This document shows, one piece after another, positions 3,568 to 21,065 of a DNA stretch of 64,000 nt (position 1 is the first letter of the stretch; each line of letters starts with the position of its first letter). The stretch is from Desulfomonile tiedjei (GTDB lineage: Bacteria; Desulfobacterota; Desulfomonilia; Desulfomonilales; Desulfomonilaceae), in contig JACRDF010000043.1 of the NCBI GenBank assembly GCA_016212925.1, positions 13,726 to 77,725 on the forward strand. The letters are read 5' to 3'. The notes under the pieces were generated by a model. It saw nothing but the letters and a program-made list of their open reading frames with translations, did not search any database and had not been told where the DNA came from. A program made the position numbers and the translations under genes.

Positions 3568-4962
3568 CTACTTCCCTACGCAAAAACGTTCGAAGATCCG
3601 GTCGAGGATCCCTTCGTCCACACGCTCACCAGTGATCTCTTCCAGAAAATCGAGCGCTTTTCTGATTTCCAGCGACACGATTTCCGGCTTAACTGTTCCC
3701 GCTCTGTCAAACGCTTCGATCAAATCTTTCATTGGCATCAGGGCCGCGTGCACCAGCAGCAAACCTCGGTCGGTCAAGGACCCGGAAAGGCCTGCCGTGG
3801 CCCGAGAAGTCAGTCTGTGGCCCTGGTCCGCGATGGCCTTTTCAAGAGTGCTGAGGTTTTGTCCCGTCCTTGCACTGATCGCCACCCTGGGCCAGTGGTC
3901 GGGACCGGGGATCTTGTTCTCATCCAGCGCAAGCCCGAGGTCCTGCTTGTTCAGAATTAGGATGGTATTCTTTTCTCGGCAGGCATCGAGGACCATAGCA
4001 TCGGCGTCATCCATCGGCTGGGCCCCATCGAGGACAGCCAGTACAAGGTCCGCGGTCTTGATCCTCTCGTGGGTGCGCCGAATCCCCTCTTCTTCTACCG
4101 GCTCGGGATCATGTCGAATCCCTGCGGTATCGCACAGTAGATAAGCCGTTTCATCCAGGAGGAGGAAGTCGTCCACCAGATCACGGGTAGTGCCCGGATA
4201 GGGCGTCACAATAACGCGGTCACTGCGCAAGAGCGCATTAAACAGAGTGGACTTGCCCACATTCGGCTTGCCCACGATTACCGTGTTTATCCCCTGCCTC
4301 CGAATTTTTCCCGCCTCCGAATTCTCCAGCAGACCCTGCATCTGATCTGCTACACCTCTGATTATCCCCTCCAGGTCCGGCGCAGGTTCTTGATCGTCGT
4401 CATCAAAGTCAATGTGCGCTTCCAGGGTGGCGAGGCCGTCTTTCAGCGCGTCGGAAATCTGGGCCATCTCTTTGGAGACCGAGCTTTCCAGCGTTGCACG
4501 GGCTTCTTCCGCGGCAGCCATACTGCGGGCCTCAATTAGGTCGATAACCGCTTCCGCTTGAATCAGATCGAGCCTGCCGGACAGGAACGCTCGCCGGGTG
4601 AATTCCCCGCGCGTAGCAGGACGAGCGCCCAGATTCGTTATCAGACGCTCCACGGCATCCAGAACAACAGGACTGCCGTGCAAGCTCAACTCCACCATAT
4701 CCTCCCCGGTATAAGAGGCCGGACTGCGCATTACTAGAGCGATCCCGTCATCAAGGGTCCTCCCGTCATGAGGATGAACGACCCTTCCGTAAACCGCGGC
4801 CCGATCCGAGAACTCTCCGCTTTTTCCCCGGGGATGGAAGATTTTCCGCAGTATGCCCAGCGCGTCGGGACCACTGATGCGAATGACTCCGATGCCCGAA
4901 TAGCCGCGGGGTGTGGAAAGAGCTACGATAGTGTCACTGGATATGCTCGGTCTCGTGGTCAT
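3568..4962 (-). CDS. mnmE: tRNA modification GTPase MnmE (TrmE)
   Basis: N-terminal DTIVALSTPRG motif, G-domain GKPNVGKSTLFNAL and C-terminal CVGK. The gene ends the rpmH-rnpA-yidD-yidC-jag-mnmE operon. Confidence 0.9.
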   Translation of the reverse strand: MTTRPSISSDTIVALSTPRGYSGIGVIRISGPDALGILRKIFHPRGKSGEFSDRAAVYGRVVHPHDGRTLDDGIALVMRSPASYTGEDMVELSLHGSPVVLDAVERLITNLGARPATRGEFTRRAFLSGRLDLIQAEAVIDLIEARSMAAAEEARATLESSVSKEMAQISDALKDGLATLEAHIDFDDDDQEPAPDLEGIIRGVADQMQGLLENSEAGKIRRQGINTVIVGKPNVGKSTLFNALLRSDRVIVTPYPGTTRDLVDDFLLLDETAYLLCDTAGIRHDPEPVEEEGIRRTHERIKTADLVLAVLDGAQPMDDADAMVLDACREKNTILILNKQDLGLALDENKIPGPDHWPRVAISARTGQNLSTLEKAIADQGHRLTSRATAGLSGSLTDRGLLLVHAALMPMKDLIEAFDRAGTVKPEIVSLEIRKALDFLEEITGERVDEGILDRIFERFCVGK

Positions 4963-5139
4963 GGCAGGACAATTCTTGCAGGTGCATGCGAAAATAAAAC
5001 TGTGGGGAAGCTCTTTTTTGTTAACACTGGTGAGCGCGGCGCGACGATTAGTCTTCGGGCTCGCCTCGCCTCAGCCCAAACCCGGCTGACTAAAAGGAAG
5101 ACGTAGCCGCCTGCTTTTGCCTCCGGATGCCGCTTGGAA

Positions 5140-5275
5140 CTGTCATTGCGAGGAGTGGAACGAGGAAGCAGTCTCATCTTCGGTGGGACGGGCATCTTGC
5201 CCGTCATTCCAATGGACAGGCGGGACGCCTGTCCCACCATTGGAGATTGCTTCGGGCTGCGCCCTCGAAATGACA
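5140..5275. repeat. Dispersed repeat family E, copy 1: a small MITE-like element with terminal inverted repeats (ctgtcattgcgaggagtg ... ccctcgaaatgacag)
   Basis: The motifs attgcgaggagtg(g/a)aacga(g/c)gaagca(g/a)tctc and gggacgcctgtcccacca are shared with 47610-47690 and 55622-55760. Confidence 0.45.
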
Positions 5276-5364
5276 GGTTCATGGAATCCCGTCACCTCAA
5301 GCGGATCTAAGGTCATAGTCCATTTACAAAAAGTTGCTTCCCGCAATTTCCTGGTTTCAATTTC

Positions 5365-6213
5365 TTATCGTCTTCGGCGTTTGCTCACCGGCCCTCGCCG
5401 GGGGTATACGACGATCCTTCGGAGGGCCCCCTCACCGTAACTCTTTGTATACACCTCGCGATCTTCGGCCAGGAAGAGGTGAATTAAACGTCTTTCGTAC
5501 GGCGGCATCGGGTTTAAGGCAACCGGTTTCAAGGTTTTCTTGGCCTTCTGGCTGGATTTCAAGGCCGTCTCACGAAGACTTTCCCTTTTTCGGAGTCTGT
5601 AGCTCTCGGTGTCCACAACTATTTCGATCTTTTCACCCGGCGCGTTTTCCTTGTTGACGATTTTGTTCACCAAAAACTGGAGCGCGTCCAGGGTCTGACC
5701 CTTTTTCCCGATCAGCAAGCCCGATCCGTCCCCTTTGATATCAAGGTACACGGCTCCTTCCACTATGGAGGCATCGACTTGAGCATCCACAGGGATCCGT
5801 TTGAGGATCTCCTGCAGGACTGTCGAAGCTTCCTGCATGTACGACGACTGTTCGGGGGTAGGCTCGGTAGGTTCGGGCCGTGTGAGCACAGGCACAAAGT
5901 CAGGAGTCGCCTGCAAGTCTTCGGTTGCCGATTCGAAGTACTCCTCCTCGGCTACCTCGCGGGCGGGAGGTGGTTCTATTTCCATGGCGTCTTCTTCCGC
6001 GGCCGCGGCAGGTTCAGCTTGCATCACTTCCTGAAATATGTTGCGTTTGCGAACCCTTATGCGGGCGTCTCTTTGGCCCACGATTCCCAGGAATCCCCGT
6101 GTACTCTCTTCCAACACGTCGATTTCCAGAAGGGCTTCGTCCACATCAAGCTCTTCGCACGCTTTAGCAACGGCCTCTTTGACGGACTTTCCGGTAAATT
6201 CGTAAAACGACAT
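5365..6213 (-). CDS. Jag/KhpB RNA-binding protein (Jag_N, KH and R3H domains)
   Basis: N-terminus MSFYEFTGKSVKEAVAKACEELDVDEALLEIDVLEE (Jag_N). C-terminal KH/R3H region (IGKKGQTLDALQFL...RRLIHL). It sits immediately downstream of yidC. Confidence 0.75.
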   Translation of the reverse strand: MSFYEFTGKSVKEAVAKACEELDVDEALLEIDVLEESTRGFLGIVGQRDARIRVRKRNIFQEVMQAEPAAAAEEDAMEIEPPPAREVAEEEYFESATEDLQATPDFVPVLTRPEPTEPTPEQSSYMQEASTVLQEILKRIPVDAQVDASIVEGAVYLDIKGDGSGLLIGKKGQTLDALQFLVNKIVNKENAPGEKIEIVVDTESYRLRKRESLRETALKSSQKAKKTLKPVALNPMPPYERRLIHLFLAEDREVYTKSYGEGALRRIVVYPRRGPVSKRRRR

Positions 6214-6226
6214 GACTCTATTCCTC

Positions 6227-7945
6227 TTACTTGGCCATTTTGTTGGTGATAACCTGCTGACCTATCGAAAGCACGTTACTTATCAACCAATAAAGAACCA
6301 GGCCCGAAGGAAAACTCAGAAACAGGTAAGTGAAAACCACCGGCATTATCAGCATCATCTTTTTCTGAGTGGGGTCTCCTCCGGAGGGAGTCATCCACTG
6401 TTGCAGCACCATGGTCCCACCCATGAGAACAGGTGTCACGTAATAGGGATCCGGCGCAGAAAGATCGTTGATGCACAGATAGATTGAGGGAAGGCATACA
6501 AACGGCGCATTCCTCAGCTCGATGGCATAGGACAAGGCCTGGTACAGCGCGATGAAAACCGGCATTTGTAGAAACATGGGCCAACATCCGCCGAGAGGGT
6601 TGACCTTTTGCTCTCGAAACAGGTCCATGGTTGCCTTATTAAGGCCGGCCTTGTCGTCCTTGTATTTCTCCTTCAGTTTCGCTAACTGAGGCTGTAGGTC
6701 CTGCATCCGTTTCATGGATTTCATGCTCTTGTGAGTTAGAGGGATGAACAGGATTTTTATCAGTATGGTCAACAGGATGATATCTATCCCGTAGTTATGG
6801 GTCCCTGGAATCCTGATCCCCGCGATCTCGAAACCGGAATTGCAGAACCTCAGAAATTTCATCAAGTATTCGGACGTGATGTCCAATATTTTATAATTGC
6901 TATAGAAAAGGGCCCTGGAAAGATCGTAGCCCGCGGCGGTCAGGGCTTCCCTCTCCTTGGGTCCCAGGTACAGAGACAGATCCGTTGTCACTGCCTGACC
7001 CTGCGGTATGTCTACCCCTCCGTACCTTACCTCGATCTCGGCCACATTTTCTTTGGTGGGTTTGTAAAGCGTGACCTTTCCTGCAGGGTTTTTGCCGAAT
7101 ATCAGCGCCTTGAAAAAGTAGACGTCCCCCAGCCCGGCCCATTCAATCTTACCCGAGGGTTCTTCATTGCCTTTGATATCTTTGAAGTAGTAGTCCTTGA
7201 GTTCACCGTTTAACAGTATCTCCACGCTGTTCCAACTGAACCTATTCGACGACTCATCCTCGAAAGCTTTGCGCCAAGGAAGGGTGATCAAGTAGTTGCG
7301 GTTCTCATTGGAATTGTTGGTAAGAGTAAACGAGAAGCCGACATCGTAATTGTCCGAATTAAAAACGAACGTCTTGGCTATCCCTATTCCGGCCGCGGTG
7401 GCGGCTTTGAAGGTGATCGATTTTTTCGCACCTTTTTCGGTGAGAGAAACCGCCGTCTCCGGGGAATCGTAGTTATACGACAAGGACGCGTCGTTGAAGG
7501 TCTCGTCCCGTCCGGTAAACATGATGGACGGCCCGGAAGAATCCAACTCTTCGGGAGCAAAGAGATTGACAAGCTCTTTACCGGTCAAAGATGTGGCGTA
7601 ATCCTTGAGCTTGAAGGAAATGATACGCGCGCCTTTGGATGAGATTACTGCTTCGTATTTGGGCGTGTCGACCTTAACCAGCATGTCTTTGGCTGCGGGA
7701 GGAGCTGTTCCCTCGGGAGCCGGCCTAACCACTGACGGTGCCGGTTTGGTTTCGGACGGGGCCGCAGGAGTAGACAGAGGAGATGGAGCGGTAGGAGCAG
7801 TCGTCTCGGTAACCGGCGGCACTTTCTTGGCAGGAGGCGGTGGAGGGGAAAAGGCCTGAAAGAAGTATTGGAATACTACGATTATTACAACTGATAAGAC
7901 TATTGCCAGAATAAGGTTGCGGTCCATGCTTTTCTCCCCCAGCAA
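6227..7945 (-). CDS. yidC: Membrane protein insertase YidC
   Basis: N-terminal TM helix, a Pro/Ala/Thr-rich periplasmic linker and the conserved C-terminal 5-TM core (WGIAIILLTILIKILFIPLT..., ...PSGLVLYW). Its position after rnpA-yidD supports the call. Confidence 0.9.
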   Translation of the reverse strand: MLGEKSMDRNLILAIVLSVVIIVVFQYFFQAFSPPPPPAKKVPPVTETTAPTAPSPLSTPAAPSETKPAPSVVRPAPEGTAPPAAKDMLVKVDTPKYEAVISSKGARIISFKLKDYATSLTGKELVNLFAPEELDSSGPSIMFTGRDETFNDASLSYNYDSPETAVSLTEKGAKKSITFKAATAAGIGIAKTFVFNSDNYDVGFSFTLTNNSNENRNYLITLPWRKAFEDESSNRFSWNSVEILLNGELKDYYFKDIKGNEEPSGKIEWAGLGDVYFFKALIFGKNPAGKVTLYKPTKENVAEIEVRYGGVDIPQGQAVTTDLSLYLGPKEREALTAAGYDLSRALFYSNYKILDITSEYLMKFLRFCNSGFEIAGIRIPGTHNYGIDIILLTILIKILFIPLTHKSMKSMKRMQDLQPQLAKLKEKYKDDKAGLNKATMDLFREQKVNPLGGCWPMFLQMPVFIALYQALSYAIELRNAPFVCLPSIYLCINDLSAPDPYYVTPVLMGGTMVLQQWMTPSGGDPTQKKMMLIMPVVFTYLFLSFPSGLVLYWLISNVLSIGQQVITNKMAK

Positions 7946-13438: not shown

Positions 13439-13936
13439 TACCAACTCCCAGTCTGAAAATTGCCACGACGAATAATGAAAATTCTCAACAGATTTGGTGC
13501 CACGGACATGCCTCGCACCCGTGGCCCCATGCAAAAGCCGCCCCTTCTTTTACGGATGGGTTATTCCATAGGAAGCTGTTTCATGCTGAGTCCAAATTAT
13601 TCGTCCGAATGCAATTATTCTGCGTACGGCGCAGGCCCCCGTGCCTGCCCTGGGACCAACGAAACCCTAGGGCAAGGGCGGACGCGGGGGTCCGTGCCGT
13701 ACGAGGCCGAGGCTTCTCTTTGAACCTGAGAAATGTCGTCGCACACGGTTTCGGGAGACAAATCGGACAGTAATTTTGCCAGTTCCTATGAAAACGCCTC
13801 GAAGACAACCGGCAAGATGCCGGCGCCACCGGCGTTTTCATAATTCGTTGTGGCGCTTCCCGCCATGGCAGTTGCTATAGAATTCATTCGGAACTTACCG
13901 GGCCGTGGTTGCCGGCAACCAAAAGATACCCGCGCA

Positions 13937-14314
13937 TCAATATTCGGGATTGTGGGTCCAGTCACAGATGTAGATGTATCCGTTCCAGTCGCACGTTGAA
14001 TTAGAGGTGCCGTAGTATCCCTCGCTATCGTAATAATACGGCAGGAAATCTCTGTGGTAAGGACTCAGCCCGAAGTACCTGCCGTTACCGTTGACGCCAT
14101 CCCGGGAACGACCTACGTATGCGTCCGACCCTCCTCGCCGAACACCGGGGCTGTAACCCTGGGCCGTCAAAAAAACCGCCCGTTCCGCCGTGGCGGACAG
14201 CAGAGTGAACGTGCCGGCGGTAGGTTGCTCCGCATATGCGAGACCGGCCCCCAACAATCCAAGTGCTGCAACGGCAGTTATTGTCAACCCCAACAAAGCT
14301 ATTCCGGCCTTCAT
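13937..14314 (-). CDS. Small secreted hypothetical protein (signal peptide; Gly/Tyr-rich C-terminal half)
   Basis: Signal peptide MKAGIALLGLTITAVAALGLLGAGLAYA with an RBS-like sequence. The mature part is rich in G, Y and R; it has Cys-containing WNGYIYICDW. Confidence 0.4.
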   Translation of the reverse strand: MKAGIALLGLTITAVAALGLLGAGLAYAEQPTAGTFTLLSATAERAVFLTAQGYSPGVRRGGSDAYVGRSRDGVNGNGRYFGLSPYHRDFLPYYYDSEGYYGTSNSTCDWNGYIYICDWTHNPEY

Positions 14315-14539
14315 GTGATTGTCCTCCCTGCTTACTCACCTCGGTGCTATTAATTTGGATGCGCATCGAGATGGTGAAGATTCAGCCGGGGAGGACAATT
14401 TCATGAAGGCGTGAGCCGCCTCATTTCTTTCCTGTTCCGAACAGGTCTTTCAGACGCATAAGGAGCACCTGGTCACCGGAGGTATTGTACTTCCCCTGCA
14501 CGAACGTCCGTTGACCATCATCTTGAACGCAAGCACGCA

Positions 14540-15616
14540 CTAATCCACCACTATTTTTGTTCCTCGGTTTGCTGCCCGCTTAAAATACCAATCCATAAGG
14601 TGATCGGGAGGGGCTTCGTGGGCACTTTCTGGCTTGCGGACCAGGGTTATGGACTCGGTCGCGCACGTGGGGACACATACCCCGCACCCTATGCATCGAT
14701 CCTGCTGGACTTCATATCCCCCGTCTTCTTCGGAAATAGCCTTTACAGGGCACCGTTCATCCGCGCATACGCCGCAGGCCGCGCATGTTTCCTGATTTAT
14801 GGCGGCGTGATAGTTGCTCCTAGCCATAGCATGCGGCGCGTTATAATCCGTCATTGCCTTGATCACTCCACAGCAGCAAGAGCAGCAGTTACAGACAAAC
14901 ATCTGGTCGTTCTGCACATTGTATGTCATATGGACGAGCCCTTCCTGGTCGCACTTCTCCACTACCACCAGGGCTTCCTCTCTAGATATGACCTTTCCCA
15001 GAGGAAACTTGTCGAACGCTCCCTCGTGATTGGAAAATGCCATGCATACCTCCATCGGGTGCTTGCACGGCTCGCCCATCAGTCCCCTCTCCTTCTTGCA
15101 AATACAGTCCATGAGTTGAAACGACTTAGCCTTCTCAAGAGTGCTCCGGAGGTCCTCGTAAGGCCTCACCTGGTGCTGGCCATCGATCTGGATATTAACC
15201 GGGACCACTCTCATTAATGCCGGAGCGTAATGTCCCAAGGTACCCATAAGGGAGGGTTCGTACTCCGCCATCAGCTCGGCTAGTTCCCGGTCCAATCTGG
15301 GTTGCTGAAACTCCCAAATCCCAAATACAAAGGGAAAGAAAAGGTAAAACTGTTGATCATTCACCCTGGCGGACCCGATCTGGCCTTTTTCTACCATGTT
15401 ACGAAGAATGATCTCCATTTCGTCCACGGGTTTTCCCAGGCGCCCACCGATTTGAGTTGCTGTCTCCGGAATGGGCCTTATTTTAAGAGCCAAGTCCGCT
15501 TCTTCCGCGGTGAATATCTTTTGAAGGATTTTGAGTTCCACCCCACTTTCGGTGGAAGGAAAGCCATTCGGCAATTCGTCCAGTTTTTTAGCTAATCTCT
15601 TGTAAACATCCGGCAT
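14540..15616 (-). CDS. Multi-cluster Fe-S protein with two 4Fe-4S ferredoxin motifs plus an extra Cys-rich cluster (CNCCSCCC)
   Basis: CxxCxxCxxxCP motifs are seen twice (CAACGVCADERCP, CIGCGVCVPTCA), plus CNCCSCCCG. The likely start is MPDVYKRL. It is last in the PadR operon. Confidence 0.55.
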   Translation of the reverse strand: MPDVYKRLAKKLDELPNGFPSTESGVELKILQKIFTAEEADLALKIRPIPETATQIGGRLGKPVDEMEIILRNMVEKGQIGSARVNDQQFYLFFPFVFGIWEFQQPRLDRELAELMAEYEPSLMGTLGHYAPALMRVVPVNIQIDGQHQVRPYEDLRSTLEKAKSFQLMDCICKKERGLMGEPCKHPMEVCMAFSNHEGAFDKFPLGKVISREEALVVVEKCDQEGLVHMTYNVQNDQMFVCNCCSCCCGVIKAMTDYNAPHAMARSNYHAAINQETCAACGVCADERCPVKAISEEDGGYEVQQDRCIGCGVCVPTCATESITLVRKPESAHEAPPDHLMDWYFKRAANRGTKIVVD

Positions 15617-15734
15617 GACAGCGCTCCTTTCGCGTAGAAGGCACATGGAAGAGATTTCACAGGATCACCGGGACAGGATCCGTTTCGCATAGGCATTCAG
15701 GCTCGAGTGGGAAACGATTCGTCGGAGCCCCCAC

Positions 15735-17615
15735 TTATTTCTTTGCTTTCCCGAAAAGGTCTTTCAACCGCATAAGGAGCATCAAATCGCCGGAGGTCTT
15801 GTACTTCTGTTGCATGAACATCTGCTGTCCGTCGGCTTTGCCGGTCATGATGTCCATCCAGACATCAAAGGGAGAGTCGATGGTCAAATCCGGTTTCTCT
15901 GCGGGTCCCGCTTTGGCCTCTATCTTCCCGTCCTCGATCTTAAAGTAACAGACCCCGTCAACCGAGCCGGAAAAGTTGAATTGGATGACGGCCCTGGTGT
16001 CGCCCGCGCCTTCAGGATTAAATCCGCTCGGCATAATGACCATGAAGGTCTCTAGAGAATCCGGACGCGGCGTCAAACCTTTCTGATTGAATTCCGCGGG
16101 AGTCAATCCTTCCTGGATACAGGTTTTCCAGAATGCATTCCCCATCTTTGCAAACGAGTCAAAGTCGGTCACGATTGGCTGGGCGATCCGTTCCATTGTC
16201 GCCTGAGAGATCTTCGTGGATGCAACCAGTTCCTTGCCGGCTTGCATCGTAGCTTCGAGGACTTGTCCTGCCGTCTCAGCCACTCCCGGCAAGGTCAGCA
16301 TTTCGGCCGCGGGCCGGTAGATCTCGGCCACGAGCCCTTCACGGAATAGGAAGGTCACGTAAGAAGACAGTTGTGCAAAGACCGACGCTTCCGGAAAACC
16401 AGCCACGGACAGGACGACAGATCGAGGAGGCGTTTGGCGTAGCGGATGGGAGGTCTTGTCGTTGCTTCGCTGAAAAAATGGCTCCACAACGGGCAGGGTT
16501 CGTTCGATGAAAGCCTTCATGGTCGCGTTTACGGTGTAATGATACAAAGGTGTGGCGTAGATGACGAGGTCCGCGGCGAGCCACTTGGGGAACAGCTCAT
16601 TGGCCATATCGTCTTTATGGATGCAAACTCCTGGGGTTTTGGTCCAACACGTGAAGCAACCAATGCAATTTTTGACCTTCTTGTGACGCAGCTGGACGGT
16701 TTCCACCTCCGCGCCCGCGTCGCTCATCCCTTTGACCAGGGCGTCCAGCATAATCCCTGTCTTACTGGTCCCGTCGCCTCTCGGGCTGGAGTTAAGAGCA
16801 ATGACTTTCATAGGAGCCTCCTCTTGACGTTGTGTAAAATTCGACGATTCCTTATCTCTTGATGTGCCGGCAGGCGCTGGTTTAGCCGCGGGGAGTTCAA
16901 CTCCGGCACGTATCGCGTTTGAAACGGCACCTGTGCCCGAAACGATTGCTGCGCCGCCCGAAGAGGACTGGGCAAGTTTTCGCATCCCGGCCAGGCCCGG
17001 CAAACCCATGCGTTTGAGGTAATAGTCCGGGAACCGGATGTTGAACGGCATACCAACGGCGAGAATCACGGTGATGGGAATCAAGGCGCGTGTCACCACG
17101 GACGGATAAAGGCTCAGGACGACGCAAACCGCAAAGATCCCTGCCCAGACAAGGGTCATGATCCGATTAATGTTAGCGAAGATTGGGGTGCCCCAAACCA
17201 TCTGGGGCGCGGTTTTCTTGGCATAATGATATGTGAACGGCTCGAAACCGAGGATGAGAGGGAAGAAAGCCACGGAAAACATGCAGAGGTAGATCCCGGT
17301 TACTGCGTACTCGGTCAGGATAGCTCCGGCTGTTCCGGGCCACAAAGCGAGAGATGCGGTAATCACAAGGAAATACGCGGAAACGGCCCAGTCAAAGTAG
17401 GTCGGCTTGTCCCAGCGACTCGCCAGCACCAAGACGATGACGCAATAGATGAGCATGGCGCCGGCTGCTGCCAATAAGCTGCCCGGATCCCTCCCCACAG
17501 AGGCCCAGATCTTGAAGAACGCCAGAGGCGGAAAAGGGGCGCTGTAAAGAAGGATCTGTTGTGCCTTGGTTGGGTTTGGCAGTGCTCTTTCCTTTGCAAG
17601 AGATTCATTCTTCAT
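15735..17615 (-). CDS. Three-part fusion: N-terminal polytopic membrane domain, iron-sulfur flavoprotein (NADPH-dependent FMN reductase/flavodoxin-like, Isf-type) domain, and a C-terminal SCP2 sterol/lipid-carrier domain
   Basis: About 6 TM helices in the first ~230 aa. The flavoprotein core is MKVIALNSSPRGDGTSKTG...NCIGCFTCWTKTPGVC (the Isf CX2CX2CX7C motif). The C-terminus (GDTRAVIQFNFSGSVDGVCYFKIEDGKI...FMQQKYKTSGDLMLLMRLKDLFG) matches SCP2. Start chosen at MKNESL, which has a GAGGA RBS. Confidence 0.65.
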   Translation of the reverse strand: MKNESLAKERALPNPTKAQQILLYSAPFPPLAFFKIWASVGRDPGSLLAAAGAMLIYCVIVLVLASRWDKPTYFDWAVSAYFLVITASLALWPGTAGAILTEYAVTGIYLCMFSVAFFPLILGFEPFTYHYAKKTAPQMVWGTPIFANINRIMTLVWAGIFAVCVVLSLYPSVVTRALIPITVILAVGMPFNIRFPDYYLKRMGLPGLAGMRKLAQSSSGGAAIVSGTGAVSNAIRAGVELPAAKPAPAGTSRDKESSNFTQRQEEAPMKVIALNSSPRGDGTSKTGIMLDALVKGMSDAGAEVETVQLRHKKVKNCIGCFTCWTKTPGVCIHKDDMANELFPKWLAADLVIYATPLYHYTVNATMKAFIERTLPVVEPFFQRSNDKTSHPLRQTPPRSVVLSVAGFPEASVFAQLSSYVTFLFREGLVAEIYRPAAEMLTLPGVAETAGQVLEATMQAGKELVASTKISQATMERIAQPIVTDFDSFAKMGNAFWKTCIQEGLTPAEFNQKGLTPRPDSLETFMVIMPSGFNPEGAGDTRAVIQFNFSGSVDGVCYFKIEDGKIEAKAGPAEKPDLTIDSPFDVWMDIMTGKADGQQMFMQQKYKTSGDLMLLMRLKDLFGKAKK

Positions 17616-17738
17616 GTTTCCACAATCCTCACACGAGCGCACCGTGGAATCGCACGCCCACAAAAGGGAAGCGATCGTAAGGAGGCCGTCCGCATATTTG
17701 TACGGCGATGACGATCGGCTGCGGGCGGCTCCGTCCCA

Positions 17739-19382
17739 TCACGCCCAGTCCTCCATGAGCATTCCGAAAGCCCTCTTTCCTCCGATAAGCACGCCCGTGT
17801 ACCCTCCTCCGGGATCGCCCCACGCGCTGGAGAGGTAGAGTCCTTTTATGGGCGTTCGATTGAGAATACGCGTCATGAAGGAATTATCCATACTCTGTTC
17901 CAAGCCGTATATCGCGCCGGCCGTGTTCAAGGTGTAACGGACGTTCGTCAGGGGCGTGGCTGATTCCTGCACCGCGATCATGGTTCTAAGGCCGGGAATC
18001 AGTTGCTCTTCAACGCGTCGAATCAGGGTCTCGGTAATTTCCTTCTTTCTCGCGTTGTATTCCGTCTTCTTGCCGGCGAAATAATCCTGCTCGAATCGCT
18101 TCCAGGGCTCGTACCCGGTAATGAAGGTTATGGACAGGGTAGTGGTTCCGGGCGGCGAGAGTTCTTTGGCGATGTTGTTATAAATGCATACCCCGATATT
18201 GCTCTTGTCGGCCCGAGCTTCGAGACAATACTGATGGGCTTTTTCAGGATCTTGTTCGGCCTGCAGGAAGACGTGGGAATCCTTGACCGTGTCGGTAATG
18301 TCTTTATTCAACCCAAGCCACACCTGAAAGGACGAAACGCTTGGTTTGAGCGCACGCAGCCTCTGCAGGTAGTCCGAAGGCACGGGCGCCCCGGGAAGCA
18401 TATCCGAAAAGAGGCTGACGATGCTGCAGTTGGCAGCCACAGCCTTGGCCGTCAGAGACTCGCCTCCGGACGTCTTCACTCCCATTGCCCGGCCGTCCTT
18501 GGTGAGCACCTGCGCGACCCTTGTGCCCAATCGAACCTGGCCGCCCTTGGACTCGATCAGTTCAGTGATCGCGTTGCTGATGGCCTGGGAACCCCCGGCA
18601 GGATAAGAACCGCCGTACCGGAAATAGCCTCCGGTTGCGGTCATGTAAAGGAAGCCTGAAAGTTTGCTCGGAGGAAGGCCGTAGTATCCGCAGAGGACTG
18701 ACATCACGGATTTCAACGACGGGTTGGTTGTATATTCATTCAGGTAATCGGCCAGGGTCTTCTTTCTCGCCGCCCACAATCGCGGGAAGCGTAACGGGAA
18801 CAAGGCCTTCTTGAGCGTGGTCAACTCGCCTTCCTCAAAGAGCTTCTCAGTTTCCTCGCTCACTCCCGTCGCGTCAGCCATGAAACCCTGTATGCCCTTC
18901 TTTTCTTGTGGAAATTTCTCCAAGAGGACCTGCTCAAAAGCCTTCGGATCACCTCCGGGACAGGTGACGTCCACCCCTGTGCCAAGGACCCTAAAAAGTT
19001 CACTCGCTCTGTAGAAGCGAACCTTATCGAGGACCCCCAGGTCGGTCAGGATTGCCTTCCCTGCGCCTCCCAGCGCGGTCTGGTGTAGTGAGACATCGAA
19101 TGTGAAACGGCCCCGATCGCGGGTGAAGGTGGTGGCGTATCCCCCTGGAACGTCATGGTGCTCCAGCACAAGGACCTTGAAACCCTGTTTTGCCATGTAT
19201 CCGGCAAAGGTCAGCCCTCCCAGACCCGCGCCGATGACGATGGCGTCGTATTCGCCTTCCTTGGGACGTTGAGCAGAGGCAGGGGTTACCACAGGCACGT
19301 GAAGCGCCGCAGCGGTGGCCCACAATGCGGAGGCCCGGAGGAAAACCCTCCTGTTGATCATACTGAAGTTAAACAGAGACAT
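17739..19382 (-). CDS. Tat-exported FAD-dependent oxidoreductase of the phytoene desaturase / CrtI-like amine-oxidase superfamily
   Basis: Twin-arginine signal (INRRVFLRASALWATAAALHVPVVTPASA). The dinucleotide-binding motif is DAIVIGAGLGGLTFAGYMAKQGFKVLVLEHHDVPGGYATTF. Length (547 aa) and internal motifs fit the CrtI family. Confidence 0.75.
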   Translation of the reverse strand: MSLFNFSMINRRVFLRASALWATAAALHVPVVTPASAQRPKEGEYDAIVIGAGLGGLTFAGYMAKQGFKVLVLEHHDVPGGYATTFTRDRGRFTFDVSLHQTALGGAGKAILTDLGVLDKVRFYRASELFRVLGTGVDVTCPGGDPKAFEQVLLEKFPQEKKGIQGFMADATGVSEETEKLFEEGELTTLKKALFPLRFPRLWAARKKTLADYLNEYTTNPSLKSVMSVLCGYYGLPPSKLSGFLYMTATGGYFRYGGSYPAGGSQAISNAITELIESKGGQVRLGTRVAQVLTKDGRAMGVKTSGGESLTAKAVAANCSIVSLFSDMLPGAPVPSDYLQRLRALKPSVSSFQVWLGLNKDITDTVKDSHVFLQAEQDPEKAHQYCLEARADKSNIGVCIYNNIAKELSPPGTTTLSITFITGYEPWKRFEQDYFAGKKTEYNARKKEITETLIRRVEEQLIPGLRTMIAVQESATPLTNVRYTLNTAGAIYGLEQSMDNSFMTRILNRTPIKGLYLSSAWGDPGGGYTGVLIGGKRAFGMLMEDWA

Positions 19383-19422
19383 CGCGAACCTCCTTCGTGG
19401 GATTCAGACAATCGTTGTAAAT

Positions 19423-19959
19423 TCATTGCTCATTTTGAGACTCATCGTTCTCCAACGCCTGGACCACCTCGCTTAGGTTGCGGGCCAGGTCCCGGAAAAA
19501 GCGAAGGCCAAACTCAAAGCACAGGTACTGAAAACGGTCGGCTCGCTCTTTGACTTCAGGACCGACCGACTCCAACTGCCGGTGAAATTGTTCGATGGAA
19601 TTCAGGTAGTTACCGGCAATGGTCTTGCGCTCTTCCGGAGAGAGGTGGGCGAAAAAGAACAGCTTCATGAGAAAAATGTTTTTGGGCTGTTCAAAGGCAA
19701 AGGGTGATCGCAAGGATTCCAGTAAGACTTCCTTTCCGTCCTCCGTTATGGAGTAGACCTTGCGGTTTGGCGCGCCGTCCTGGATCTCCATCCGTTTGGA
19801 GATCAACCCGCGGCTTTCCATCTTCTTCAGAGCGGGATAGATGGATCCATAGCTCAGGCCTGAGAAGAACGAGAAGGAGATAGAGAAGGCCTTTTTAAGG
19901 TCATACCCTGTCATGCTTTTTCGCATGAGGAATCCGAGAATTACAGACTGGACATCCAT
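19423..19959 (-). CDS. PadR-family transcriptional regulator
   Basis: Winged HTH ILGFLMRKSMTGYDLKKAF...SYGSIYPALKKMESRGLI is a typical PadR N-terminus. It lies 41 nt upstream of the oxidoreductase gene on the same strand. The ORF-track start at 20025 is probably over-extended. Confidence 0.75.
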   Translation of the reverse strand: MDVQSVILGFLMRKSMTGYDLKKAFSISFSFFSGLSYGSIYPALKKMESRGLISKRMEIQDGAPNRKVYSITEDGKEVLLESLRSPFAFEQPKNIFLMKLFFFAHLSPEERKTIAGNYLNSIEQFHRQLESVGPEVKERADRFQYLCFEFGLRFFRDLARNLSEVVQALENDESQNEQ

Positions 19960-20150
19960 GGCGCCTCCATAGGAGTACATGATATATATCGTGCCGATAT
20001 ATGTCAACAGAATTTTTTGCGGCAATATCCCCTAACGGTAGGTAACAACAAGGGAGTTGATTTATGACCGCCAGACCGGGTAAATTGTGGGTAGATTATC
20101 GGCTTGGCGGACCACCGCGGTATTACCTCTCATCAAGTGAGGAATCTTTT

Positions 20151-21065
20151 ATGAAAATTCCCGAGGAAATCCGGAAATGCGCCGCCTATATTGGTTATTG
20201 GGATGGCCAGAAACATGTGCTTCTTGGTACGTGTTTTTGGGTAGGTGTGCCAGTTTCCGATTTAATGGCACACATCGTTTATGTCGTTACAGCCAAGCAT
20301 CTTATTGAAAAAATTAGGGAGAAAACCGCAGATGATAGTGCGTACTTGCGAGTCAACTTTGTGAAATCGGGAGCGCAGTGGATTAGAAATAATTTACATG
20401 ATTGGCGGTTTCATCCTACAGAAGACAATGTTGATGCTGCTGTTTTATCTATGCAATTAACAAATGAGATGGATCATAGATTTTTTCCGCAAGAGTCTTT
20501 CATTACTGACGAAATTATAGAAACGTACAATGTAGGGATTGGCGATGAAGTTTTTCTTGCGGGTTTATTTGGTAAGCACACTGGAGAAAGCCGCAATATA
20601 CCAATAATACGAGTCGGAAATATTGCAGCAATGCCAGAGGAGCCAGTCAAAACACTAAAGTGGACTTCTGAAATGGAAGCGTATCTAATAGAATCGCGAT
20701 CTCTCGGAGGAATGAGCGGATCTCCGGTTTTTGTCCATTTGGGAATAACCAGGACATTACAAGATAGACCTCATTTTATAAATCAACCCTTCTATCTCTT
20801 GGGTTTGATACATGGACATTGGGATGAAAAAGGTGTCAACGTAGGCATTGCCATCGTTGTGCCGTCAAAAAAAATCCTCGAAGTGATAAACCAACCGGAG
20901 CTCCAGCAAATGCGAGAAGTTACCAAGGCGCTTGCAAGAATTCAGCTCGGCGCTACGCCAGACTCTTCTACAAAAGAGAGCGACGAAAAGCCCTTTACCA
21001 AACAAGATTTCGAGAATGCTCTTCAAAAGGTAAGCCGACCTAAATCTGATGAAGAAACGACTTGA
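20151..21065 (+). CDS. Cytoplasmic trypsin/chymotrypsin-fold serine protease-domain protein (no signal peptide), in a low-GC islet
   Basis: Catalytic-triad-like motifs in order: VVTAKHLI (His), DNVDAAVL (Asp), SLGGMSGSPVFV (Ser; a GDSGGP-like motif). Start at MKIPEE with a GAGGA RBS. The local GC is visibly lower than its surroundings. Confidence 0.55.
   Translation: MKIPEEIRKCAAYIGYWDGQKHVLLGTCFWVGVPVSDLMAHIVYVVTAKHLIEKIREKTADDSAYLRVNFVKSGAQWIRNNLHDWRFHPTEDNVDAAVLSMQLTNEMDHRFFPQESFITDEIIETYNVGIGDEVFLAGLFGKHTGESRNIPIIRVGNIAAMPEEPVKTLKWTSEMEAYLIESRSLGGMSGSPVFVHLGITRTLQDRPHFINQPFYLLGLIHGHWDEKGVNVGIAIVVPSKKILEVINQPELQQMREVTKALARIQLGATPDSSTKESDEKPFTKQDFENALQKVSRPKSDEETT

Follow-up and report, generated by a model that had tools for sequence, protein, structure and literature searches.

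The four genes at positions 14540-20025 of the window (the whole stretch of DNA analysed, 64,000 nucleotides) contain a conserved system that, by sequence comparison, consists of a PadR regulator and a TM-[4Fe-4S/FMN reductase]-SCP2 fusion protein. The whole is best explained as a PadR-autoregulated operon for a membrane-anchored reductase of hydrophobic acceptors, a reading that has about an even chance of being correct. An earlier note on this DNA had treated all four genes, which include a CrtI-like FAD oxidoreductase and a multi-cluster Fe-S protein, as one dedicated system. From that interpretation the fusion, its control by PadR and an optional Fe-S partner were retained, whereas the dedicated four-gene system was not: the comparison of gene neighbourhoods showed PadR and the fusion to be conserved together but not the set of four, the CrtI-like gene being present in only two of 80 genome loci.

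The open reading frame list and the Pfam/NCBIfam profile search recovered the four minus-strand genes in the order and at the coordinates given in the earlier note, and the domain assignments hold, with PadR, Amino_oxidase, FMN_red, SCP2 and Fer4 all matched. The promoter and genes are as follows.

19979 to 20007, minus strand: sigma-70-like operon promoter, with -35 TTGACA at 20007-20002 and -10 TATCAT at 19984-19979
19984 to 20002, no strand assigned: putative PadR operator, a perfect palindrome ATATATCG-GCA-CGATATAT that occupies the promoter spacer
19423 to 19959, minus strand: PadR gene, 178 aa, likeliest start ATG 19959, RBS GGAGG
17739 to 19382, minus strand: CrtI-like FAD oxidoreductase gene, 547 aa, with Tat signal
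From ATG 17615 (likeliest start), minus strand: fusion gene, 626 aa, 100% identity to database protein P0001
14540 to 15616, minus strand: Fe-S protein gene, 358 aa (a family-typical length), likeliest start ATG 15616, RBS AAAGGAG

With the likeliest starts applied, the intergenic gaps are 40, 123 and 118 nt; the gaps of 41-89 nt given earlier had come from longest-ORF starts. The fusion, previously described as a 627-aa protein, is indeed a single ORF, but its length is 626 aa. Neither a terminator-like site nor an unusually stable RNA structure was found in the gaps, and co-transcription of the four genes is therefore plausible.

The fusion protein is identical to a protein of a Desulfomonile tiedjei MAG in the database protein comparison. 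More than 100 database proteins match it over the full length at 55-70% identity with the same architecture, and relatives are encoded in 209 of the 185,579 species genomes scanned, from species of the sulfate-reducer type. It is therefore one intact gene and not an artefact of frameshift or sequencing error, and its domains do co-occur elsewhere; both doubts had been raised in the earlier note, whose three-domain fusion is thus genuine and conserved. It is also uncharacterised, since no characterised member of the family was found. Among ten proteins checked, the TM domain occurred only alone or as TM-SCP2, TM-FMN_red, TM-FMN_red-SCP2 and TM-SCP2-FMN_red-SCP2; a soluble Isf-SCP2 form lacking the TM domain also occurs, and such TM-less forms are common. 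From this limited set of combinations, the three modules appear to behave as one functional set. At least one genome carries fusion-family paralogs (L046 and L059). The following parts were delimited in the fusion.

16956 to 17615, minus strand: N-terminal membrane domain, residues 1 to ~220, ~6 TM helices
16071 to 16811, minus strand: Isf-like / NQO-AzoR-like FMN reductase domain, a flavodoxin fold with a C-terminal helical extension
16623 to 16667, minus strand: putative [4Fe-4S] site, motif CIGCFTCWTKTPGVC, C-x2-C-x2-C-x7-C
15735 to 16070, minus strand: C-terminal SCP2 domain, including the stop codon

The hydrophobic N-terminal region, of about 215-220 aa, contains the conserved loops RWDKPxYFDW and DPFTYHYAKK. 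It has no Pfam family and no solved structural relative, and conserved His pairs for haem were absent from this domain in the fusion homologs. The Isf-SCP2 part is predicted from the positive-inside rule and the lack of a signal peptide to be cytoplasmic; in the structure model of the fusion (pTM 0.58) the inter-domain geometry is uncertain.

The middle domain scored above the Pfam gathering score for FMN_red (57.7 bits, cutoff 24) and has a flavodoxin-like fold, as in flavodoxin-fold quinone and azo reductases, which reduce planar hydrophobic acceptors, as do flavone reductases of this fold (PMC7862272). Its fold and its FMN_red/Flavodoxin_2 families are common to NQO1/NQO2, MdaB, AzoR, the NQO of M. 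marburgensis (4r81) and the flavone reductase FLR (7d38). The last of these is its best solved sequence relative (profile E 9e-17); FLR likewise continues past the flavodoxin core with a C-terminal extension and carries, at the corresponding position, a C-x2-C-x2-C-xn-C stretch. However, identity to these enzymes is only 13-20%, and as described they are soluble, stand-alone, driven by NAD(P)H or FMNH2, and free of an Fe-S cluster, a membrane domain or SCP2, unlike the fusion. The motif CIGCFTCWTKTPGVC begins about 49-50 residues into the domain, and none of its four Cys residues varies among 63 sequences, which reach down to 30% identity. It has the compact Isf arrangement (C-x2-C-x2-C-x4-7-C near the domain N-terminus), and its spacing fits the Isf cysteine motif reportedly set out by Zhao et al. 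in 2001. Isf from Methanosarcina thermophila similarly joins a flavodoxin-like FMN domain to a compact Cys4 motif ~50 residues in; no solved Isf protein was found among the sequence or fold matches of the middle domain. The four cysteines of the fusion may bind a [4Fe-4S] cluster, and they suggest a donor other than NAD(P)H. In Isf, electrons pass from ferredoxin via [4Fe-4S] and FMN to the acceptor, and the same path is proposed by analogy for the fusion.

The C-terminal domain matched SCP2 (PF02036) above the gathering score (56.5 bits, cutoff 21.3), and the SCP2 alpha/beta fold was confirmed; the domain could instead serve in dimerisation or as a lid rather than in lipid binding. An assignment as UbiT was rejected (NCBIfam NF047962, 18.3 bits, cutoff 46.9), and UbiU/UbiV-like genes do not recur in the fusion-locus neighbourhoods. 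Among SCP2-appended enzymes (alkylsulfatases SdsA1/YjcS, peroxisomal MFE-2/SCPx) and quinone-pathway SCP2 proteins (UbiJ/UbiT), the catalytic partner differs from that of the fusion, being a sulfatase, hydratase, thiolase or hydroxylase complex, and none has its TM domain. We know of no SCP2 system of these types under PadR control.

In 50 of the 80 genome loci the gene immediately upstream of Isf-SCP2 encodes a PadR homolog (53-75% identity); an adjacent PadR is absent in the other 30, five of which end at a contig edge. The two genes often overlap by 11 nt in related loci, and their adjacency, together with the operator, is conserved across several families of Thermodesulfobacteriota. The regulator matched Pfam PadR with 61.6 bits (cutoff 27) and Vir_act_alpha_C with 22.5 bits (cutoff 22.4), and thus has the N-terminal PadR wHTH and C-terminal dimerisation domain of the two-domain subfamily; its PDB relatives are SMU.1604c, PadR (6jyi and 5x11) and AphA (1yg2). 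The operon promoter matches the consensus at 11 of 12 positions with a 17-nt spacer, and the same layout of TTGACA, palindrome and A/T-rich -10 also precedes PadR in about 50 related loci. The putative operator, newly noticed here, has the general form ATATATCG-N3-7-CGATATAT between -35 and -10. Allowing at most one mismatch and a distance of at most 120 nt upstream of PadR, it was found in 48 of the 50 PadR loci. The 64-kb window holds one perfect copy, and beyond the PadR loci the single extra match in the scanned locus DNA lies upstream of the PadR-less paralog L059, which shares a contig with L046. On these counts it is very likely that PadR controls the fusion gene, in line with the control suggested by the earlier note, and the conserved palindrome over the promoter is strong indirect evidence for its putative role as the PadR operator.

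Phenolic acids are signals for two-domain PadR proteins, which then leave a palindromic operator (PMC5728393). As in the present locus, the two-domain PadR repressor adjoins its target gene in the PadR-PadC phenolic-acid stress operon of B. subtilis and with the PadR-type drug-efflux regulators LmrR and LadR, which have palindromic promoter operators and hydrophobic or phenolic effectors (PMC5728393). However, the target here, a reductase, is neither a decarboxylase nor a pump, and the hosts are Thermodesulfobacteriota, unlike those of the known systems. The known PadR operator is of the ATGT-N8-ACAT type and differs from the one described here.

The Fe-S protein has the ferredoxin motifs and the CNCCSCCC run ascribed to it in the earlier note. 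Its Fer4 families span only residues 281-334 of the 368-aa ORF, within a C-terminal 2x[4Fe-4S] ferredoxin domain to which the PDB matches are limited; a non-Fer4 region of ~100 aa lies at the N-terminus. Of the 18 Cys residues invariant in the family alignment, 10 are additional to the ferredoxin motifs and fall in C-x-C-x10-C-x6-C and C-x-CC-x-CCC. The name RnfB, used in some sources, was rejected (TIGR01944, 34 bits against 68.7, with the ferredoxin domain alone matching), and no rnf genes were found near this gene or the homologs examined. A homolog adjoins PadR or the fusion in 14 of the 80 loci, at either of two positions and alongside each of the three fusion architectures; the family is mostly located elsewhere, on its own. 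By this distribution the Fe-S protein recurs as a partner of the fusion but is optional.

The CrtI-like protein matched Amino_oxidase (68.5 bits, cutoff 19.8) and NAD_binding_8. It scored 148.8 bits, below the cutoff of 238.1, against the CrtI/phytoene desaturase family (TIGR02734, crtI_fam) and far below all cutoffs of the CrtISO, CrtD and CrtO equivalog models; by profile scores it belongs solely to the broad Amino_oxidase/FAD superfamily. Among PDB structures it is closest to CrtI (4dgk) and the CrtD-like 4rep. Its N-terminus, MSLFNFSMINRRVFLRASALWATAAALHVPVVTPASA-Q, is a twin-arginine signal (INRRVFL...ASA-Q) with an RR motif, a hydrophobic stretch and an AxA cleavage site, from which export is predicted; the RR motif is kept in 107 of 120 homologs. 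The two loci that contain the gene, L008 and L030, belong to close Desulfomonilaceae relatives (86-89% identity) and repeat the order PadR-CrtI-fusion. In another Desulfomonilaceae MAG, the 87% ortholog and PadR-fusion are on separate contigs, and more distant relatives stand alone in unrelated contexts. The pattern marks the gene as specific to one clade, in which it was inserted between PadR and the fusion gene. Direct electron transfer between the CrtI-like protein and the fusion is unlikely, as the former would be exported, a cytoplasmic location is predicted for Isf-SCP2, and haem-type His pairs are lacking in the TM domain.

In the preferred explanation, a PadR dimer on ATATATCG-N3-CGATATAT between -35 and -10 would block the promoter until a lipophilic or phenolic effector freed it from the palindrome. 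The fusion enzyme, at the cytoplasmic side of the membrane surface, would carry electrons of low potential to FMN by way of its [4Fe-4S] cluster and then reduce a hydrophobic, membrane-partitioning acceptor bound or presented by the SCP2 and TM domains. Quinones, polyphenols or ene-type compounds are candidate acceptors, a class guessed by analogy from the fold relatives and the regulator type. The 358-aa Fe-S protein may act as an optional electron donor. The CrtI-like enzyme would be a recent clade-specific passenger and no electron-transfer partner, with a related compound as its probable periplasmic substrate.

Four other explanations were weighed. Membrane-level oxidative-stress defence, in which O2, H2O2 or lipid hydroperoxides are reduced in strict anaerobes and SCP2 binds oxidised lipid, is improbable. 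In its favour are the presence of both an Isf-type Cys motif and FMN_red in the protein and the origin of the hosts, strict anaerobes whose record titles point to soils, peat and groundwater where O2 fluctuates, and Methanosarcina Isf is said to reduce O2 and H2O2 (Cruz and Ferry, 2006). However, neither SCP2 nor a membrane anchor is needed for such reduction, solved Isf proteins are absent among the matches, and the signals known for PadR regulators are phenolic (PMC5728393). A housekeeping, non-pumping ferredoxin (or Fe-S protein):menaquinone oxidoreductase feeding the quinone pool is slightly less credible still. It would suit the quinone-reductase fold, a plausible low-potential Fe-S input, the membrane anchor with a lipid-binding domain, and the position of the module near dsr genes in Syntrophobacteraceae. 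Such a role is at odds with tight coupling to a ligand-type repressor whose operator would occlude the promoter, with the common soluble forms, with the restriction to so few of the scanned genomes, and with the paralogs. Lipophilic-drug and envelope signals are also known for PadR regulators, which are not known to sense peroxide, a further point against oxidative-stress defence.

The pathway implied by the earlier note is unlikely: all four genes would desaturate, oxidise or reduce an isoprenoid-type lipid (carotenoid, hopanoid, quinone tail or hydrocarbon), with the CrtI-like protein as catalyst, the fusion as SCP2-guided electron relay and the Fe-S protein as redox partner. The common strand, the single promoter/operator and the gaps free of terminator-like sites and unusually stable structure agree with it, as do the recurrent PadR-CrtI-fusion order, the nearest PDB structures of the FAD enzyme, and a weak similarity of SCP2 to UbiT and UbiJ; UbiT, itself an SCP2 protein, belongs to the O2-independent route to ubiquinone (PMC6747719). 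Against these stand the rarity of the CrtI-like gene at fusion loci and its location elsewhere in the other MAG, the sub-cutoff crtI_fam and UbiT scores, and the predicted separation of the two proteins by the membrane with no haem-type His pairs to bridge it; furthermore, genes for making isoprenoids, quinones or hopanoids do not recur near the fusion loci. Chance neighbourhood, with nothing beyond ordinary gene packing, is very improbable overall and is disfavoured for the PadR-fusion core by the linkage and operator counts, which extend across several families, and by the recurrence of the Fe-S protein in two positions. It would fit the mostly solitary occurrence of the Fe-S and CrtI-like families elsewhere, and a relic just downstream of the Fe-S gene that marks a past rearrangement of the locus.

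14420 to 14524, minus strand: SCP2 relic, the last 32 codons and stop

This relic is a direct repeat of 15734-15838 with 77% nucleotide identity, and tblastn matched it at 72% over 32 aa (E 1e-8).

Four minus-strand ORFs are present at window positions 14540–20025, and every domain that the earlier note had ascribed to them was confirmed by Pfam. They encode a PadR regulator (PadR, 61.6 bits, and also Vir_act_alpha_C), a CrtI-like FAD enzyme of 547 residues (Amino_oxidase/NAD_binding_8) with the twin-arginine leader INRRVFL...ASA-Q, a fusion protein with FMN_red (57.7 bits), Flavodoxin_2 and C-terminal SCP2 (56.5 bits) domains behind about 215 hydrophobic N-terminal residues that have no Pfam match, and an Fe–S protein with Fer4-type matches only, all within its last 80 residues. 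The fusion protein and the FAD enzyme are each 100% identical to NCBI Desulfomonile tiedjei MAG proteins. Three likely starts were assigned from ribosome-binding sites and homolog lengths, giving intergenic gaps of 40, 123 and 118 nt.

19959, minus strand: likely start of PadR (178 aa)
17615, minus strand: likely start of the fusion protein (626 aa)
15616, minus strand: likely start of the Fe–S protein (358 aa)

The three-domain fusion described in the earlier note holds as a single gene: full-length homologs are plentiful, which rules out a split of the 626-residue ORF by frameshift, sequencing error or mis-assembly. It matches more than 1800 database proteins, the best 120 of which carry FMN_red plus SCP2 and, once the 100% self-match is set aside, are 56–70% identical, and the TM region, reductase domain and SCP2 domain all align end to end in a 15-sequence alignment. 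The four cysteines of CIGCFTCWTKTPGVC are invariant in 63 sequences, down to 30% identity. When each GTDB species was represented by a single genome, relatives of the fusion proved to be encoded in 209 species genomes. Nearly all of these are MAGs labelled Thermodesulfobacteriota or 'delta proteobacteria' (Desulfomonilaceae, Syntrophobacteraceae, Syntrophales, Syntrophorhabdaceae, Desulfobacterales and Desulfatiglandales), and their record titles give soil, peat, groundwater and sediment as sources. The relatives have three architectures.

About 600–645 aa: TM–Isf–SCP2, to which the window protein belongs
About 720 aa: TM–SCP2–Isf–SCP2
About 360 aa: Isf–SCP2, soluble

The second SCP2 domain, between the TM and reductase domains, marks a subfamily of proteins of about 720 residues (among the database proteins P0040–P0096), encoded at loci L041, L043, L046, L049, L050, L052, L055, L058, L060, L061, L067, L072, L081 and L083. 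At locus L030 (8001–9876) the fusion gene is broken over two reading frames, representing either a pseudogene or an assembly indel error.

The TM domain (residues 1–215) has no solved relative, and an exhaustive HMMER search recovered only 372 cluster representatives. Ten of these were checked and comprised TM alone, TM–SCP2, TM–FMN_red, TM–FMN_red–SCP2 and TM–SCP2–FMN_red–SCP2 proteins, together with one 410-residue protein in which a second domain could not be firmly assigned; among the ten, the TM domain was joined to no further class of domain. The TM, FMN_red and SCP2 modules thus recombine only with one another, which argues for a joint function. Hydropathy and the positive-inside rule (four Lys/Arg residues at the N-terminus and five in the post-TM segment) suggest six TM helices with both termini in the cytoplasm, a topology that would place the conserved loops RWDKPxYFDW and DPFTYHYAKK and the Isf–SCP2 domains on the cytoplasmic face. 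Close homologs share just one invariant His in the TM domain and the wider family has none, which makes a transmembrane relay via haem unlikely. When the reductase family profile was compared with the PDB, the flavone reductase FLR (7d38) ranked first (E = 9e-17), with azoreductases and NQO2 next, and Foldseek agreed. No solved Isf was retrieved, and the name 'Isf-like' therefore reflects the Cys motif and where it lies rather than demonstrated homology. FLR is an FMN ene-reductase that acts on planar plant flavones, and its C-terminal extension is required for substrate binding (PMC7862272).

Neighbourhoods were counted in 80 genome loci. In 50 of them the gene immediately upstream of the fusion or Isf–SCP2 gene encodes a PadR homolog (53–75% identity), and its ORF often overlaps the enzyme gene by 11 nt. 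An Fe–S protein homolog adjoins in 14 and lies within 5 kb in two more, either between PadR and the enzyme gene (32–41% identity) or downstream of the latter, which is the arrangement in the window (61–62% at L007, L010 and L037; 44% at L072). The CrtI-like gene is present at only two loci, L008 (89%) and L030 (86%), where, as in the window, it lies between PadR and the fusion; two extra ORFs (4246–4929 and 4980–5564) separate it from PadR at L030. The four genes, which the earlier note had treated as one unit, are therefore not a conserved operon. Beyond family-specific synteny, no further recurrent neighbours were found in the 80 loci. ABC ATPases occur near the fusion at varying positions, and the remaining neighbour clusters reflect synteny specific to Syntrophobacteraceae. 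In that family only, including Syntrophobacter sp. SbD1 (L004/L016), a PadR–FeS–fusion module lies beside a dsr-type cluster, with a gene for NirD/L-like HTH and AsnC-type domains on one flank and dsrD, NIR_SIR (dsrAB-like), cobyrinic-acid-amide-synthase-like and dsrC genes on the other.

The regulator is accompanied by a sharply defined operator. A promoter-like site, TTGACA-17-TATCAT (11/12 match), precedes the PadR start by 20 nt, and its spacer is a palindrome.

19984–20002: putative PadR operator, perfect palindrome ATATATCG-GCA-CGATATAT forming the promoter spacer

The predicted PadR target in the window reads ATATATCGGCACGATATAT, and the palindrome has a single perfect copy in the 64 kb. 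The same layout, consisting of a T-run, TTGACA, ATATATC(G)-N3-7-(C)GATATAT and an A/T-rich −10 element, precedes PadR in essentially all related loci, with the general form TTGACA-ATATATCG-N3-7-CGATATAT. When at most one mismatch is allowed, 48 of the 50 loci have the motif in the 120 nt ahead of PadR, and the rest of the locus DNA scanned contains a single further copy. This copy (7869–7887) precedes L059, a soluble Isf–SCP2 paralog without PadR, on the same contig (CAVYEB010000002.1) as L046, a PadR–FeS–(TM–SCP2–Isf–SCP2) locus, which suggests PadR control in trans of a small regulon in this genome. The window PadR belongs to the two-domain class, of which the B. subtilis member leaves its palindromic operator when a phenolic acid occupies the inter-domain pocket (PMC5728393). 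Terminator-like sites are absent from all intergenic gaps of the locus, the two longer gaps are no more stably folded than shuffled sequence (z of 0.2 and 0.84), and no Rfam family matches positions 13800–20200; transcription of the four genes together from the PadR promoter is plausible.

The FAD enzyme belongs to the Amino_oxidase/FAD superfamily but scores under the crtI_fam cutoff and far under every equivalog model. Its Tat motif is a family trait, kept in 107 of 120 homologs, and an 87% ortholog lies on a separate contig from the PadR–fusion pair in another Desulfomonilaceae MAG. We read the gene as a recent passenger under the shared PadR promoter, since it is linked to the fusion in three closely related genomes only and its product is predicted to be periplasmic, whereas the Isf–SCP2 part is predicted to be cytoplasmic; the enzyme may act outside the membrane on the same class of compound.

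In thirteen Fe–S protein homologs (38–84% identity), 18 Cys residues are invariant, forming two ferredoxin motifs and, with ten further Cys, C-x-C-x10-C-x6-C and C-x-CC-x-CCC. PDB sequence and profile searches matched the C-terminal ferredoxin domain and nothing else. The label 'RnfB' used by some sources is not supported, as TIGR01944 reaches 34 bits where its cutoff is 68.7. Recurrent but optional adjacency to all three enzyme architectures fits this protein as a putative electron-donor partner of the fusion. The family extends to Hydrogenedentota, Abyssubacteria and Poribacteria; its N-terminal ∼100 residues are conserved and look winged-helix-like by eye. In other places the gene is often solitary, and in two cases a TetR gene is beside it (L086 and L089).

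The kinds of system behind this module are known, namely flavodoxin-fold reductases, enzymes with an appended SCP2 domain and PadR stress operons, to which it adds the membrane domain and the well-defined operator. No characterised member of the regulator–enzyme family was found, and searches of PMC open-access papers and bioRxiv gave no description in which SCP2 is combined with an Isf, an FMN reductase or PadR, and only unrelated papers on Desulfomonile and PadR. On the best-supported reading, the module may well be an effector-inducible, membrane-associated Fe–S/FMN reductase for a hydrophobic acceptor, in which the SCP2 and TM domains handle the substrate. From the fold relatives and regulator type only, we infer a quinone, polyphenol or other lipophilic electrophile as the substrate class. 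A more far-reaching proposal, possible but doubtful, is that TM–Isf–SCP2 proteins are an unrecognised class of ferredoxin- or Fe–S-protein-driven membrane reductases. The membrane domain, as a new fold, would with SCP2 pull a lipid-soluble acceptor (menaquinone, humic-type quinones, plant polyphenols or membrane lipid) from the bilayer and hand it to the [4Fe–4S]–FMN site, and the dedicated PadR sensor would turn on the whole system through the lineage-wide operator. If true, anaerobic Thermodesulfobacteriota would have a novel way of handling or respiring hydrophobic redox-active compounds.

An Isf-type defence against O2, peroxide or lipid peroxide is unlikely, and a housekeeping ferredoxin:menaquinone oxidoreductase slightly more so. 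The four-gene isoprenoid pathway of the earlier note is improbable: in the 80 loci the CrtI-like gene accompanies the fusion only twice, and isoprenoid genes are not among the recurrent neighbours; nor are efflux-pump genes. The CrtI-like and Fe–S families (more than 2200 and 4000 matches, respectively) are mostly single genes in unrelated contexts, and neither had a conserved partner in seven neighbourhoods examined. That the genes have no functional linkage at all is most improbable. In the regulator–enzyme family as a whole, the combination of a compact Fe–S/FMN reductase, a lipid-carrier domain and such a TM domain has not been described before, and the sharp operator means that the regulon is easily mapped and the inducer easily screened. 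The identity of the substrate would reveal by what means these strict anaerobes reduce hydrophobic redox-active compounds, or render them harmless, among them quinones, humics, plant phenolics and possibly xenobiotics, and might also provide anaerobic biocatalysis with a new sensor/reductase pair.

The flanks of the locus hold further elements. On the PadR side, a divergent 333-residue ORF (20064–21065, plus strand) begins about 57 nt away from the PadR promoter's −35 box; it has only a weak Trypsin_2 match (E = 0.0018, under the cutoff), and no homolog was found in related loci. Two elements lie beyond the Fe–S gene.

14420–14524, minus strand: SCP2 relic, a 3' end of 105 nt encoding ...DGQRTFVQGKYNTSGDQVLLMRLKDLFGTGKK*
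14300–14430, minus strand: long hairpin (arms 14307–14328 and 14389–14410; −54.9 kcal/mol, z −6.5)

The relic, which is absent from related loci, lies 15 nt past the Fe–S gene stop and matches the fusion gene's end (15734–15838) at 77% DNA identity, so that a direct repeat brackets the Fe–S gene; this points to an earlier recombination or deletion event in which a second fusion paralog took part. None of 200 shuffles was as stable as the hairpin, which has no Rfam match and pairs the ribosome-binding site (GGGAGGA) and ATG of ORF 13937–14314 (125 aa, apparently secreted, no Pfam match) with an upstream complementary arm, and which might serve to control translation or mark where the operon transcript ends.
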